Below, in pieces: positions 1 through 64,000 of a DNA stretch of 64,000 bases; position 1 is the stretch's first letter, and each line of letters begins with the position of its first letter. The position numbers and the translations under genes were made by a program. This DNA comes from Escherichia coli. GTDB taxonomy: Bacteria; Pseudomonadota; Gammaproteobacteria; Enterobacterales; Enterobacteriaceae. The notes under the pieces are model-generated. The model was given only the letters and a program-made list of their open reading frames with translations. It made no database searches and was not told the origin of the DNA. Location of the stretch: the NCBI RefSeq assembly GCF_041248615.1, contig NZ_CP158426.1. The stretch is one strand, 5' to 3'.

Positions 1-227
1 CACAGCTTTTGTGCCGCGCGCTCAAATCCTCGTTCACGTATCACCGCATCCAGTGCCTGTAATGTTCTGTAGTCCGGGCGTTTCATTGCTGTTGTCTGCT
101 CCTGGTAAATGCTTTTTCCTGCACTATGACACAATTTTGTGTCAGGTTGCATATACCGAAGCCGTCGGCGGGTAACATTTGTATTCGTGGTTAAACGCGC
201 AGCTTAAAAGATCAGGGATTTGCGCTA

Positions 228-458
228 ATGCATTTCGCTCAGCGAGTTCGCGCCCTGGTTGTGTTGAATGGCGTGGCGTTATTGCCTCAATTTGCCTGTA
301 AACAGGGGCTTGTGAACGGTGAACTGGTGCGCCTGTTTGCTCCGTGGAGCGGCATACCCAGATTGTTGCATGCCTTATTTGCGGGGCGAAAGGGGATGCC
401 TGCCATTGCGCGATATTTTATGGATGAGTTAACCACGCGGCTTGCCAACGGGGTCTGA
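228..458 (+). pseudogene. yqfE: LysR-family regulator C-terminal fragment (yqfE-like remnant); upstream 1-227 shows only frame-broken pieces
   Basis: 76-aa ORF with LysR effector-domain-like sequence (ALVVLNGVALLP...), no intact N-terminal HTH domain upstream; position between argP side and rpiA matches the K-12 pseudogene. Confidence 0.5.
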
Positions 459-10796: not shown

Positions 10797-13670
10797 ATGA
10801 CACAGACGTTAAGCCAGCTTGAAAACAGCGGCGCTTTTATTGAACGCCATATCGGACCGGACGCCGCGCAACAGCAAGAAATGCTGAATGCCGTTGGCGC
10901 ACAATCGTTAAACGCGCTGACCGGCCAGATTGTACCGAAAGATATTCAGCTTGCGACCCCGCCGCAGGTTGGCGCACCGGCGACCGAATACGCCGCACTG
11001 GCAGAACTCAAGGCTATTGCCAGTCGCAATAAACGCTTCACGTCTTACATCGGCATGGGTTACACCGCCGTGCAGCTACCGCCGGTTATCCTGCGTAACA
11101 TGCTGGAAAATCCGGGCTGGTATACCGCGTACACTCCGTATCAACCTGAAGTCTCCCAGGGCCGCCTTGAAGCATTGCTCAACTTCCAGCAGGTAACGCT
11201 GGATTTGACTGGACTGGATATGGCCTCTGCTTCTCTTCTGGACGAGGCCACCGCTGCCGCCGAAGCAATGGCGATGGCGAAACGCGTCAGCAAACTGAAA
11301 AATGCCAACCGCTTCTTCGTGGCTTCCGATGTGCATCCGCAAACTCTGGATGTGGTCCGTACTCGTGCCGAAACCTTTGGTTTTGAAGTGATTGTCGATG
11401 ACGCGCAAAAAGTGCTCGACCATCAGGACGTCTTCGGCGTGCTGTTACAGCAGGTAGGCACTACCGGTGAAATTCACGACTACACTGCGCTTATTAGCGA
11501 ACTGAAATCACGCAAAATTGTGGTCAGCGTTGCCGCCGATATTATGGCGCTGGTGCTGTTAACTGCGCCGGGTAAACAGGGCGCGGATATTGTTTTTGGT
11601 TCGGCGCAACGCTTCGGCGTGCCGATGGGCTACGGTGGCCCACACGCGGCATTCTTTGCGGCGAAAGATGAATACAAACGCTCAATGCCGGGCCGTATTA
11701 TCGGTGTATCGAAAGATGCAGCTGGCAATACCGCGCTGCGCATGGCGATGCAGACTCGCGAGCAACATATCCGCCGTGAGAAAGCGAACTCCAACATTTG
11801 TACTTCCCAGGTACTGCTGGCAAACATCGCCAGCCTGTATGCCGTTTATCACGGCCCGGTTGGCCTGAAACGTATCGCTAACCGCATTCACCGTCTGACC
11901 GATATCCTGGCGGCGGGCCTGCAACAAAAAGGTCTGAAACTGCGCCATGCGCACTATTTCGACACCTTGTGTGTGGAAGTGGCCGACAAAGCGGGCGTAC
12001 TGACGCGTGCCGAAGCGGCTGAAATCAACCTGCGTAGCGATATTCTGAACGCGGTTGGGATCACCCTTGATGAAACAACCACGCGTGAAAACGTAATGCA
12101 GCTTTTCAACGTGCTGCTGGGCGATAACCACGGCCTGGACATCGACACGCTGGACAAAGACGTGGCTCACGACAGCCGCTCTATCCAGCCTGCGATGCTG
12201 CGCGACGACGAAATCCTCACCCATCCGGTGTTTAATCGCTACCACAGCGAAACCGAAATGATGCGCTATATGCACTCGCTGGAGCGTAAAGATCTGGCGC
12301 TGAATCAGGCGATGATCCCGCTGGGTTCCTGCACCATGAAACTGAACGCCGCCGCCGAGATGATCCCAATCACCTGGCCGGAATTTGCCGAACTGCACCC
12401 GTTTTGTCCGCCGGAACAGGCTGAAGGTTATCAGCAGATGATTGCGCAGCTGGCTGACTGGCTGGTGAAACTGACCGGTTACGACGCCGTTTGTATGCAG
12501 CCGAACTCCGGCGCACAGGGCGAATACGCGGGCCTGCTGGCGATTCGTCATTATCATGAAAGCCGCAATGAAGGGCATCGCGATATCTGCCTGATCCCGG
12601 CTTCTGCGCACGGAACTAACCCCGCTTCTGCACATATGGCAGGAATGCAGGTGGTGGTTGTGGCGTGTGATAAAAACGGCAACATCGATCTGACTGATCT
12701 GCGCGCGAAAGCGGAACAGGCGGGCGATAACCTCTCCTGTATCATGGTGACTTATCCTTCTACCCACGGCGTGTATGAAGAAACGATCCGTGAAGTGTGT
12801 GAAGTCGTGCATCAGTTCGGCGGTCAGGTTTACCTTGATGGCGCGAACATGAACGCCCAGGTTGGCATCACCTCGCCGGGCTTTATTGGCGCGGACGTTT
12901 CGCACCTCAACCTGCATAAAACTTTCTGCATTCCGCACGGCGGTGGTGGTCCGGGTATGGGACCGATCGGTGTGAAAGCGCATCTGGCACCGTTTGTACC
13001 GGGTCATAGCGTGGTGCAAATCGAAGGCATGTTAACCCGTCAGGGCGCAGTTTCTGCGGCACCGTTCGGTAGCGCCTCTATCCTGCCAATCAGCTGGATG
13101 TACATCCGCATGATGGGCGCAGAAGGGCTGAAAAAAGCAAGCCAGGTGGCAATCCTCAACGCCAACTATATTGCCAGCCGCCTGCAGGATGCCTTCCCGG
13201 TGCTGTATACCGGTCGCGACGGTCGCGTGGCGCACGAATGTATTCTCGATATTCGCCCGCTGAAAGAAGAAACCGGCATCAGCGAGCTGGATATTGCCAA
13301 GCGCCTGATCGACTACGGTTTCCACGCGCCAACGATGTCGTTCCCGGTGGCGGGTACGCTGATGGTTGAACCGACTGAATCTGAAAGCAAAGTGGAACTG
13401 GATCGCTTTATCGACGCGATGCTGGCTATCCGCGCAGAAATCGACCAGGTTAAAGCCGGTGTCTGGCCGCTGGAAGATAACCCGCTGGTGAACGCGCCGC
13501 ACATTCAGAACGAACTGGTCGCCGAGTGGGCGCATCCGTACAGCCGTGAAGTTGCAGTATTCCCGGCAGGTGTGGCAGACAAATACTGGCCGACGGTGAA
13601 ACGTCTGGATGATGTTTACGGTGACCGTAACCTGTTCTGCTCCTGCGTACCGATTAGCGAATACCAGTAA
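10797..13670 (+). CDS. gcvP: glycine dehydrogenase (decarboxylating), P protein
   Basis: 957-aa [25 protein letters not shown]... Confidence 0.97.
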
Positions 13671-60658: not shown

Positions 60659-60732
60659 GCGGGCGTAGTTCAATGGTAGAACGAGAGCTTCCCAAGCTCT
60701 ATACGAGGGTTCGATTCCCTTCGCCCGCTCCA
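60659..60732 (+). tRNA. glyU: tRNA-Gly (anticodon CCC)
   Basis: GCGGGCGTAGTTCAATGGTAGAACGAGAGCTTCCCAAGCTCTATACGAGGGTTCGATTCCCTTCGCCCGCTCCA; cloverleaf with anticodon loop CUUCCCAAG and encoded CCA. Confidence 0.95.
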
Positions 60733-60770: not shown

Positions 60771-61229
60771 TGTCAGCAACTTAAACAGTTACCTATTTAA
60801 TTTGCTTAGGAGTTCTACCATTGTGATCCGCCCTTAGTAACTGTCACGTTAAGTTACACGGTGAGATGACAGTATAACCTAACGTTGGCGGCAGTTGCAC
60901 CTCTCACACCGCGATAGCACAACGTGAAGATAAAGCCCATCCTGGCATTGTAATGTCATCGACAGACTGAACACACGCATTTAAGCCCGATGTGCGGCCT
61001 TGTGGCTGCGTAAACAGGTTTATGGTGATATTGGTCCTTGCAAACCATATGCAAGCTCTATCAGCGTTTCAGCCACGCTCCCAACGGGTACACGGTTATC
61101 CTGATAAGGTGTGATCTTTCTGACAATCTGATGAAGTCGCTACGCTCCCGCTTGTTGCTGTATCACCAACGGGGCTTTATGGTTTCTATTGTCTATAATA
61201 ATCTCACAATTCCCCTGCATGAGGTTGAT

Positions 61230-61436
61230 ATGACTGTTAGCTACAAGATTACTTATGAGCATAGAGACGGTGATCAAATTAGAATGGAAGAGGTTTTATT
61301 CCATTCAGAGCATGAACCAACAAAAGATGAAATTCATGATGCAGTAAGAAAAGATACTGTGAGATTTAATTCTCCATCTAATGGAGTAACGGCTGTTTCA
61401 GGGTTTAAAGTGATTTCGGTTGTCCCTGTTCCATGA
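61230..61436 (+). CDS. hypothetical small protein (68 aa)
   Basis: ATG preceded by gagg SD; the longer 132-aa version of ORF 61038..61436 has no convincing start context; convergent hairpin at the 3' end. Confidence 0.35.
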   Translation: MTVSYKITYEHRDGDQIRMEEVLFHSEHEPTKDEIHDAVRKDTVRFNSPSNGVTAVSGFKVISVVPVP

Positions 61437-61447
61437 ATGGTTATAGA

Positions 61448-61464
61448 AGGGGCTGGAAGCCCCT
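61448..61464. terminator. hairpin between the convergent small ORF and lipoprotein gene
   Basis: aggggct-gga-agcccct. Confidence 0.5.
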
Positions 61465-61469
61465 AATTA

Positions 61470-61790
61470 TTACTTCTTAATATCGCCAGTGCATTGATAT
61501 TCGATAGTCACAAGTGTTTGCATACAACCAGATGAAGAAGGTTGTGAACATTGAGAAGTGAATCCACCAAAAGGCTCGGCTCCTGAATATCCCCAAGCGG
61601 CACAACGCGCTTTGGCTGCATTCATGCCTTGTTGTGGATCTACAACAGGACTTTCAAACATACCGTAAGAATAACTCATCCTAACTGTGCCGTCTGATTT
61701 GCTTCCACCAGTTGGAACGAGTTGTTTTTTTGTTGCACATCCAGAAATAATCAATGTTGAAGCAAGTAACAGCATTAAACTTTTGCGCAT
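61470..61790 (-). CDS. cysteine-rich predicted lipoprotein (106 aa)
   Basis: signal peptide with lipobox LIISGC; four further Cys in the mature part; no family recognised. Confidence 0.6.
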   Translation of the reverse strand: MRKSLMLLLASTLIISGCATKKQLVPTGGSKSDGTVRMSYSYGMFESPVVDPQQGMNAAKARCAAWGYSGAEPFGGFTSQCSQPSSSGCMQTLVTIEYQCTGDIKK

Positions 61791-62442: not shown

Positions 62443-62994
62443 TTACGCTTCCTGCTCTTTCTTGATACGTTGCACCGTTTGTGTGCTGACACTGAAATCT
62501 TTTGCTACGCTCCGAATTGATCCACCATTCGCGAGAGCGGCAGCAATTCCCGCTCGATCAATTGCTTTTCCATTACCACGTTTTGCTATACGTCCAGCGG
62601 CCTTAGCTGCGGCGATCCCCTCACGCTGGCGCTCAAGCATCATTTCACGTTCCATTTGTGCCACTGCTGCAAGCACTGTGAGCATCATATTCCCTGCGGG
62701 AGAGTTCTTCCCTGTCTTAAAGTCTTCTTTATGGAAATGCACAGACACGCCGCGCTTTGTTAATTGCTCAACCGTTGCCAGTAGGTCGGCTGTATTACGG
62801 CAAAGTCGATCAATACTGTGAACATGCAAAACATCACCTTCCCGCACATAGTTCATCATTGCCTCAAACTGTGGGCGCTGGGTATTCTTGCCTGACGCTT
62901 TATCTTCAAAGACTTTATCAAGAGCTACTCCAGCTAATTGACGGTCTGTGTTTTGTTGCACAGTCGATACCCTAATGTATCCAATATTAGCCAT
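62443..62994 (-). CDS. serine recombinase, resolvase/invertase family (183 aa)
   Basis: N-terminal catalytic motif GYIRVSTVQQNTDRQ with the active-site Ser, FEDKASG, DRLCR, and a C-terminal HTH (GGSIRSVAKDFSVSTQTVQRI). Confidence 0.85.
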   Translation of the reverse strand: MANIGYIRVSTVQQNTDRQLAGVALDKVFEDKASGKNTQRPQFEAMMNYVREGDVLHVHSIDRLCRNTADLLATVEQLTKRGVSVHFHKEDFKTGKNSPAGNMMLTVLAAVAQMEREMMLERQREGIAAAKAAGRIAKRGNGKAIDRAGIAAALANGGSIRSVAKDFSVSTQTVQRIKKEQEA

Positions 62995-63019
62995 TTTCTT
63001 TATTCCTTCTGTGTTGATT

Positions 63020-63130
63020 TGTGTGTAGTGATTATTGATCGTGTTGATTAGGTGTGTAAAGGACTTTTTTCACTACGAAATTCGAAGGTTTTTAGTGTGG
63101 TGATTTAGCCTGCTTTATCACTACACGTCT
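63020..63130. promoter_or_regulatory. structured inverted-repeat region upstream of the recombinase gene (candidate res-like / autoregulatory site)
   Basis: 10-bp perfect inverted repeat gtgtagtgat (63023-63032) / atcactacac (63117-63126), internal cactac/gtagtg motifs, and a central cgaaattcg palindrome (63076-63084). Confidence 0.4.
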
Positions 63131-63516
63131 TGCATGAGAATCATGTAGTTACATTTTGGTAAAATTAGCAAGCTATTAAATAGTGTGTTTATTTTGAAAA
63201 AATAATTTTTTGTTGCATTAAAGGAAACTTGTTCAATAAATGATAGAACGTTTATTGAGCAACAATTTTGCAGTGATGCGCTATATGCCGCATTACATAA
63301 GGCTTTGCTGATGATAATGTAAAAGTGAAGAAAGCTAACATTGCTCTTTTAAGCTACTTTTCATTGAATTTTTAGTATGGAATTACATAGGGATAAACTA
63401 TGAATATTCTATGATTTACACGAGATATTCTTGCTGTTTAATTCCGGCTTTGGAGATCAGGCATTCGCAAGAATACGCTAACGCGTTGCCTGAAAAGCCA
63501 TTGCACATAATAGAGG

Positions 63517-63835
63517 TGAGCGTATAGCGAACTATCAATGTGATCATTGCACGAATGATAATGAGTGGATATAGATTCTATATATCGTTAGATTGTAGTT
63601 TGATAGTTAATGTGTAATGTAGATTGTATGAGCGTATAGCGAATGTTAGTTAGATCAACAACAAACTAACCTTTAAATCTCTTTTATCTTCTCATAGATA
63701 TGGCTATGCGTAGCAACCGAAGGTTAGCCAATCATCTCTATGCAGCCGTAAGGCTGTTTTGCATGTAATAGTTGTTTGTTGTTGTTAGACAGTTACCAAT
63801 TTATAGATCAGAGATAGATGTGAGCGTTGAGCGAT
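63517..63835 (+). repeat. iteron-like direct repeats (3 copies)
   Basis: tgagcgtatagcgaa at 63517-63531 and 63629-63643 (exact), degenerate tgagcgttgagcgat at 63821-63835. Confidence 0.6.
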
Positions 63836-63924
63836 ACACTAATCATAACAACATCTTCTTACTTTTTAGTTAGTTGTTAGTAGGTTATTGTTATGCGCGC
63901 TATTAGCGCATGTATAAAGGTATC

Positions 63925-63999
63925 ATTTTTATCTAAAGGGCTTTAGACATTTTTGATACCTTTTTCATCTCTAAAAAAGTGTAATTTTTATCTAAAGGG
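63925..63999 (+). repeat. short tandem direct repeats atttttatctaaaggg
   Basis: exact 16-mer at 63925-63940 and 63984-63999, with a degenerate copy tttttcatctctaaaaaa between them. Confidence 0.6.
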
Positions 64000-64000
64000 G

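Follow-up and report, generated by a model that had tools for sequence, protein, structure and literature searches.

The final kilobase (positions 62995-64000) of a 64,000-nucleotide stretch of Escherichia coli DNA (contig NZ_CP158426.1; hereafter the window) starts directly after the start codon, at 62994, of a minus-strand gene for a small serine recombinase, and contains no open reading frame (ORF) of 60 aa or more in any frame. We consider it likely that this segment forms the leftmost kilobase of a non-coding control region, 2.3 kb in length, that belongs to a phage-satellite-like island integrated at a tRNA gene and holds sites for proteins rather than genes. The last 13,006 bases of the window are identical to positions 1074995-1088000 of NZ_LT599825.1, a locus termed L001 below (window coordinate = L001 coordinate + 50994), and the ORF-free DNA continues past 64000 to ~65330 in window-equivalent coordinates (L001 12001-14336). 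We refer to these 2336 bp as the non-coding region (NCR; NCR coordinate = window coordinate minus 62994). An initial annotation had described about 1 kb of ORF-free, AT-rich DNA; both properties were borne out, the G+C content of the segment being 33.3% vs 50.8% for the whole window, whereas the edge at 64000 is not the end of the ORF-free stretch.

The genes preceding the NCR are, in order, xdhA, actS, tRNA-Gly(CCC), a gene for an 85-aa hypothetical protein, a YecR lipoprotein gene and the recombinase gene on the minus strand. On the right, an ORF of 48-59 aa is followed by IS1 (L001 14527-15224), which cuts the island after or within this first small ORF and abuts partial yqeI and yqeH, remnants of the ETT2 type III secretion island. 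As IS1 both ends the island and borders on a partial yqeI, the loss took in part of the adjacent ETT2 along with the island. IS1 has removed the genes for the replication initiator (Rep), the capsid protein and the integrase, no Rep gene being left in this genome, and the window copy is therefore a non-functional relic, a stump of the island. The target genes do lie to the right, beyond the window end, as had been proposed from the sequence, and in this genome they are gone.

Intact islands of ~12.5 kb (O26:H11 H19 and O104:H4) possess the same recombinase and ORF-free stretch at one end and a tyrosine integrase at the other. Their genes are arranged as recombinase (minus strand), NCR, small ORFs, Rep, capsid protein, a 613-aa protein and the tyrosine integrase, and the islands are integrated at tRNA-Gly or tRNA-Thr (tRNA-Thr in O104:H4). 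Rep (~220 aa) has replication-initiator, O-like and DnaD-like PHROG matches. The capsid protein belongs to phrog_29 and to the lambda-gpE-type Pfam family Phage_cap_E. It shares 24-26% identity with the major head proteins of phages that are Phapecoctavirus-like, rV5-like or Pbunavirus, those of Phapecoctavirus and rV5-like phages being its closest phage counterparts. The 613-aa protein has no Pfam match, and no portal, terminase or tail set was recognised in the islands.

Parts of the NCR were detected in 721 of 5426 complete E. coli genomes (~13%). Homologues of the capsid protein (53-60% identity) led to further islands in Citrobacter, Klebsiella, Enterobacter, Cronobacter and Dryocola. The gene order shared across genera begins with a cargo slot, a small serine or tyrosine recombinase on the minus strand, a gap of 1.5-2.6 kb and small ORFs, and ends with a DUF6538 integrase; in between lie, in this order, an HTH_36/MarR-like protein, the capsid protein, a protein of ~620 aa and, in some islands, a Dit-like one. 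The gap is ORF-free or nearly so in all sampled genera; in Klebsiella it contains a Dam gene, which lies on the other side of the recombinase from the cargo slot. A long NCR is thus a hallmark of the island family.

The initial annotation had proposed searching the repeats against plasmid or phage origin databases. A BLAST search with the NCR gave no match among the phages of INPHARED and only two E. coli records among plasmids, one of them a mislabelled chromosome. Scanning one genome per species for an exact conserved pattern returned E. coli only. A metagenome scan with the 18-mer gave 55 true homologues among many chance matches. A literature search for this island family or its NCR returned nothing specific. 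ARAGORN found no hidden tRNA or tmRNA in eight loci. ParA/ParB-type Pfam families, which would accompany a partition site, are not listed for any island gene.

The segment could in principle encode small proteins below the 60-aa cut-off, since at a 30-aa cut-off it contains ORFs of 37, 38, 43 and 33 aa, but we regard this as highly improbable. The PGAP annotation of the ~40 genomes listed has no feature over 62995-64000. These ORFs are not conserved, the 33-aa ORF being hit by a 7-nt insertion in strain 08-00022. The 38-aa ORF has no Shine-Dalgarno sequence upstream, as judged by reading the sequence. Stop-free lengths are those of shuffled sequence (the longest run is 75 aa in the segment and 80 aa in the full 2336-bp region, vs a shuffled mean of 85.5).

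Based on pairwise BLAST and alignments of 81 loci, we divided the segment into blocks A, B and C (Table 1), which differ in their conservation. Block A is conserved only in loci carrying the same 183-aa recombinase. Block B occurs in every E. coli island variant with 80-91% mean pairwise identity while its flanks are replaced, and ATGTAAAAGTGAAGAAAG is the most conserved 18-mer of the region. Block C, assessed with its part at 63430-63915, is present in 75 of the 5426 genomes, in all but one of them at 95% identity or more, and most island variants lack it. Promoter-like sites in 62900-64000 are confined to the minus strand, where they serve the recombinase, and no terminator was found in this interval.

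Table 1. Features of the island locus in window coordinates, with NCR coordinates for the blocks
Feature	Window position	NCR position	Strand	Description
tRNA-Gly (CCC)	60659..60732		+	integration site and left island boundary; L001 9665-9738
Cargo slot	61179..61790			85-aa hypothetical protein (+); YecR-family lipoprotein, 61470-61790 (-)
Small serine recombinase	62443..62994		-	resolvase/invertase family, 183 aa; reads away from the ORF-free DNA
Block A	62995..63220	1-226		minus-strand promoter of the recombinase (63060->63031); half-sites GTAGTGA/TCACTAC, both orientations
Block B	63221..63421	227-427		ATTACAYA direct motifs at 63292 and 63382, weaker third at 63416; 18-mer ATGTAAAAGTGAAGAAAG
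Block C		428 to ~1210		lineage-restricted module
Block C, left part	63422..63912			short hairpins and dispersed motifs
Compound hairpin	63446..63499			GGCTTT..CAGGCA..ACGC-TAAC-GCGT..TGCCTG..AAAGCC; inner helices predicted, outer GGCTTT/AAAGCC pairing by eye
15-mer copy 1	63517..63531		+	TGAGCGTATAGCGAA; left end-point of the UTME-12 304-bp deletion
15-mer copy 2	63629..63643		+	TGAGCGTATAGCGAA
11-bp perfect inverted repeat	63656..63784			CAACAACAAAC/GTTTGTTGTTG around three hairpins, GCTA-TGCG-TAGC, AACC-GAA-GGTT and CAGCC-GTAA-GGCTG
15-mer copy 3	63821..63835		+	TGAGCGTTGAGCGAT; right end-point of the UTME-12 deletion
First 59-bp unit, with candidate operator	63916..63963			48-bp near-palindrome with perfect 16-bp core TCTAAAG-GG-CTTTAGA
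Second 59-bp unit (second palindrome), start	63972..64000			cut by the window edge

In our interpretation of the NCR as a control region, block A would combine the promoter of the divergent serine recombinase with half-sites that may serve as its res site or as an autoregulatory site. The candidate half-sites are located at 63025(+), 63071(-), 63098(+), 63118(-) and 63147(+). The direct ATTACAYARGG motifs of block B could be sites for a common factor. Block C is a lineage-specific module, in which the palindromes at the right end probably act as operators of a rightward promoter 170 bp beyond the window. The replication origin would lie outside the window, where two 23-bp iterons matched to the O-like Rep are followed by ~75 bp of very AT-rich DNA.

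The recombinase next to block A matches phrog_125 (4e-62). It is related to the Tn3 and gamma-delta resolvases (2e-27 to 2e-26) and to DNA invertase chains (1e-24 to 5e-24). The NCR is always adjoined by a small recombinase, either serine (179/183 aa) or tyrosine (186-205 aa); the tyrosine enzyme replaces the 183-aa serine one in some E. coli islands (L026 and L148, beside blocks A/B) and in all other genera sampled. Serine and tyrosine recombinases also interchange in plasmid multimer-resolution systems. Because of this swapping at one position, a role in multimer resolution fits the recombinase, with block A as a candidate site. As in the res regions of Tn3 and gamma-delta, a serine recombinase gene (E 2e-27 to Tn3 resolvase) lies adjacent to and divergent from repeated half-sites directly upstream of it. 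A res site has several dimer-binding sites, each made of two inverted half-sites, over ~120-200 bp; any three-subsite arrangement of the block A half-sites is putative.

The constant presence of a small recombinase, together with the label 'DNA invertase' on the best PHROG match of the serine enzyme, could also point to an invertible phase-variation switch operated by it, in line with the earlier suggestion of a phase-variable operon. This is scarcely credible, however: among the 81 loci there are 0 inverted segments, IS3 copies aside, no long inverted repeats resembling recombination sites in quality were seen to flank the region, and the recombinase is equally close to resolvases and invertases.

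Two kinds of repeats had been flagged in the segment as iteron-like. Exact copies of the 15-mer TGAGCGTATAGCGAA are present at 63517 and 63629, and a third copy, with 3 mismatches, is found at 63821; the copies are thus spaced by 112 and 192 bp. These repeats are real and far above chance level: allowing up to 3 mismatches, the window contains 7 matches vs 1.75 expected, a number reached by 0 of 100 shuffles. The loose form of the motif, GAGCG-N2-4-RGCGA, is strongly enriched, with three occurrences in 62995-64000, all in block C, vs one in the other 63 kb of the window. In the surrounding 25 kb it recurs only in the E module of the same locus, a hairpin-rich part of the NCR beyond the window, with two copies, one per orientation. 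In strain 08-00022 the third 15-mer copy is the consensus, TGAGCGTATAGCGAT. Strain UTME-12 (locus L147) has a 304-bp deletion relative to window 63527-63830, with end-points exactly in copies 1 and 3. The same strain carries a second deletion, which takes out the downstream promoter region.

The 15-mer core (CGCTCA on the opposite strand) is kept in the E modules of several genera, and islands with other Rep types carry the motif in their E modules in either orientation. The motifs TGTGYAAT and ATCTAACGAT are likewise common to C and E, in opposite orientations. The dispersed TGAGCG-N3-AGCGA motifs of block C belong to the same motif vocabulary as the origin-adjacent E module. Since profile hidden Markov models of the E module are non-significant on block C, we claim only these shared short motifs and not homology.

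The 16-mer ATTTTTATCTAAAGGG, flagged as a tandem repeat at the window edge, is exact at 63925 and 63984 (0.04 expected). These repeats are genuine and look like operators rather than iterons. ATTTTTATCTAAAGGG is part of a 59-bp tandem unit, the second copy of which is cut by the window edge, and forms half of the perfect 16-bp palindrome TCTAAAG-GG-CTTTAGA, the core of a 48-bp near-palindrome. The 59-bp unit is present in one or two copies depending on the strain. All six TCTAAAG copies, including two extra half-sites, lie within 270 bp upstream of a rightward TTGACA-18-TATAGT promoter (L001 13177-13206, ~170 bp past the window). Because clustering upstream of a promoter is the usual layout of operators, the palindromes are probably operators of this near-consensus promoter.

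The 15-mers are not the iterons of the element. An iteron-type origin has at least three close, regular direct repeats of ~17-23 bp, an AT-rich unwinding element and an initiator that co-varies with the repeats. The 15-mers have spacings of 112 and 192 bp, no AT-rich unwinding element adjoins the repeats in the window, and the 15-mer occurs with both O-like and helicase replication modules. The reading of the segment as an iteron-bearing origin thus holds in so far as it belongs to the replication and cis-control region of a mobile element, whereas the real iterons are found past the window.

After block C the NCR comprises a variable iteron array, ~75 bp of very AT-rich DNA, the E module (~500 bp), a conserved F block and, lastly, a second promoter followed by the first small ORF. 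In L001 the array consists of two 23-bp semi-palindromic units (13213-13258, window-equivalent 64207-64252) and the AT-rich stretch spans 13259-13330, which places both 200-330 bp past the window edge. In a set of 55 loci, the class of repeat that precedes the AT-rich DNA varies in step with the Rep cluster. ACAGAAnnnTGTTA occurs in 4-6 copies with the 186-189-aa Rep of cluster 1 (17/17 loci), CCCCTATCA in 3-5 copies with the 220-223-aa Rep of cluster 2 (7/7 loci), GGTCAnnGTGAnC with the 208- and 229-aa Reps, and GGAAATGAGTTCC in 2-4 copies with the 221-222-aa Rep. Every tested Rep cluster matches replication-initiator PHROGs. Conservation is accordingly mosaic, with blocks B, E and F retained and the iterons swapped together with Rep. 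These out-of-window repeats behave as true iterons, as judged by their close spacing, semi-palindromic form, position beside AT-rich DNA and co-variation with Rep.

The E. coli O26:H11 11368 island (L024 7230-7770, integrated at tRNA-Thr) has a 3-kb NCR with five iteron classes, including five tandem 22-bp GGGGGTAGGTCATAGTGAGCTA units, and codes for a single Rep (cluster 3). The extra arrays could be decoy or handcuffing arrays against rival islands. In a test for an origin copied from a helper phage, the O26 11368 iteron arrays had no match in INPHARED.

Some islands raise the question of whether the C module is itself an origin. In Z1323CEC0012 and 08-00022 the NCR consists of blocks A/B and C only, and a module encoding a 494-aa DEAD/DEAH helicase follows directly. 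If the C module were the replication origin of this variant and the 15-mers its iterons, the helix-turn-helix DNA-binding match at the C-terminus of the helicase would provide a binding partner, and the 15-mers are direct repeats that have recombined. This proposal seems quite doubtful, however. The 112- and 192-bp spacings are far above iteron phasing, the 15-mer motif also appears, in either orientation, in the E modules of O-like Rep islands, 38 of the 75 C-bearing genomes have the O-like Rep arrangement, and no AT-rich unwinding stretch abuts the 15-mers.

The NCR is rich in short hairpins, some with GNRA-like loops, inside a CAACAA/TTGTTG helix. A large structured RNA across the window, which these hairpins had brought to mind, was dropped, as the tests gave it no support. 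A broader form of this idea is that those parts of the NCR with many hairpins (the E module, with block C by extension) are transcribed as a large structured regulatory RNA or long leader for gene expression or immunity. In its favour is a cross-genus alignment of E modules, in which 40 base pairs are predicted on both strands and 87% of cells are Watson-Crick. Double changes affect 12 of the pairs vs 1-4 in slid controls, and 12 was reached by 2 of 500 shuffles. Stems are swapped with the loop kept (ACCG-TGAAA-CGGT, CTCG-TGAAA-CGAG, GCG-TGAAA-CGC), another stem reads TACGCC/GGCGTA vs TTCGCC/GGCGAA, and two E. coli haplotypes differ by a whole-hairpin swap. In addition, a near-consensus promoter in L001 and L002 reads into the E module, and C-block motifs are complementary to E-module segments. 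The P4 CI RNA and the PLE inter-inverted-repeat transcript are precedents (PMC7567579).

Other observations argue against transcription of this kind. A search of the full NCR with Rfam 15, which includes GOLLD and ROOL, gave no match; at E<=1 only tRNA-Gly appears, the rest being at chance level. The E module has no strand asymmetry, the counts of G-U vs A-C in shared helices being 15 vs 30, 32 vs 22 and 12 vs 17 in three data sets, and the alifold energies are alike on both strands. Among E. coli type 1 E modules, which show almost no variation, only 4 of 91 pairs covary (covariation term -0.53). Hairpin loops occur in either orientation, depending on the strain.

Within the window the structured-RNA reading is not supported. 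Fold z-scores are -1.0 to -2.3 and alike on both strands (-2.05 and -2.34 for 63656..63784, equal on both strands), the sliding-window z-scores being uninformative. The window has neither a plus-strand promoter nor a terminator, and E-module profiles give E of about 0.7-1 on the C module. Transcription of the NCR as a large RNA is therefore unlikely in our view. The E module nevertheless appears from its base-pair changes to be a conserved structured element, be it RNA, single-stranded DNA or a cruciform, to which block C is not assignable. As a speculative extension with rather low odds, the E module and degenerate relatives in block C could form a new family of large structured elements of ~450-600 nt (either a leader or regulator made of RNA or an origin structure of single-stranded DNA) that control replication or immunity in widespread, hitherto undescribed enterobacterial satellite islands with swappable iteron-Rep cassettes. 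A separate candidate was rejected: the E-module core TTGTGAGCGGAAA (L001 13467-13489, minus strand) agrees with the left half of lac operator O1 at 12 of 13 positions, which we judged a probable coincidence.

Individual hairpins are also found inverted. In block B of L006 a hairpin loop is exactly inverted between strains (CATTACACA vs TGTGTAATG), and an E-module hairpin likewise differs between L153 and L160 (ACCG-TTTCA-CGGT vs ACCG-TGAAA-CGGT). Such exact hairpin-loop inversions are the signature of template-switch micro-inversions at palindromes.

Several points weigh against our interpretation of the segment as a set of duplex protein-binding sites. For the 15-mer, a direct half-repeat, no cognate protein is obvious, and the res, operator and binding-site roles that we infer inside the window follow from position and symmetry only. 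Given the compensatory base-pair changes of the E module across genera, RNA or single-stranded DNA may be the active form in part of the NCR. Finally, the diversity of the C module (at least 95% identity) is too low to discriminate between duplex sites and RNA.

The nearest described layout is the NCR of the Vibrio cholerae PLE, which spans 2.7-3 kb and contains four repeat families, with an origin of initiator-bound semi-palindromic iterons in one quarter (PMC7145576, PMC7567579). A MarR-like gene lies alongside, and an abundant non-coding RNA is produced between inverted repeats (PMC7145576, PMC7567579). The E. coli islands would match this layout in architecture, with an ORF-free region of several kb separating a leftward cluster from rightward operons, several repeat families, and semi-palindromic origin repeats in one part. 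Moreover, relatives in Citrobacter, Cronobacter and K. aerogenes carry a flanking gene for a 153-aa protein whose Pfam matches are HTH_36 (unmarked) and MarR/MarR_2 (weak or faint). The likeness is architectural and the satellite behaviour of the islands is putative. Sequence similarity was neither found nor expected, the initiator is O-like/DnaD-like by PHROG and not RepA_N as in PLE, the present hosts are Enterobacterales, and the island carries a lambda-gpE-type capsid gene.

Two further systems share single features with the islands. The lambda-type origin consists of O-protein iterons and an AT-rich region. Correspondingly, the islands have 2-7 internally palindromic repeats of ~19-23 bp followed by an AT-rich stretch, an initiator with O-like PHROG matches, and specificity pairs that are swapped among relatives. 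In contrast to lambda, the island iterons are intergenic, lying ~1 kb upstream of the Rep gene and not within it; they are outside the window and match no phage in INPHARED. In the P4 satellite, immunity depends on a leader and the CI RNA. The islands share with P4 a long untranslated region upstream of a satellite replication operon with internally complementary repeated segments, whereas a processed small RNA, terminators, similarity to P4 and a strand signal were not seen in the NCR.

While the window segment alone is a dead remnant, what gives the finding its interest is the island family with its conserved structured module. The ~12.5-kb islands extend to at least five enterobacterial genera besides E. 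coli and combine an unusually long NCR and modular iteron-Rep pairs with a multi-hairpin element covarying across genera. If they are satellites of virulent or temperate coliphages, the NCR would encode replication control, immunity and perhaps competition between islands.

The intact O26 H19 island contains a second ORF-free gap of 880 bp (L002 14060-14939), which is missing from the window genome and has no Rfam match. Two promoter-like sites and two clean rho-independent terminators in this gap suggest that it holds two small RNA genes. The content of the cargo slot varies between islands (the window, L009, L147, L148, L149, L151, L154 and L160), including YecR lipoprotein, HNH, RelA_SpoT, Hok/Gef and DUF4145 genes. 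The cargo-slot proteins of the window have no PHROG match, and the variable slot resembles an accessory or defence hotspot.

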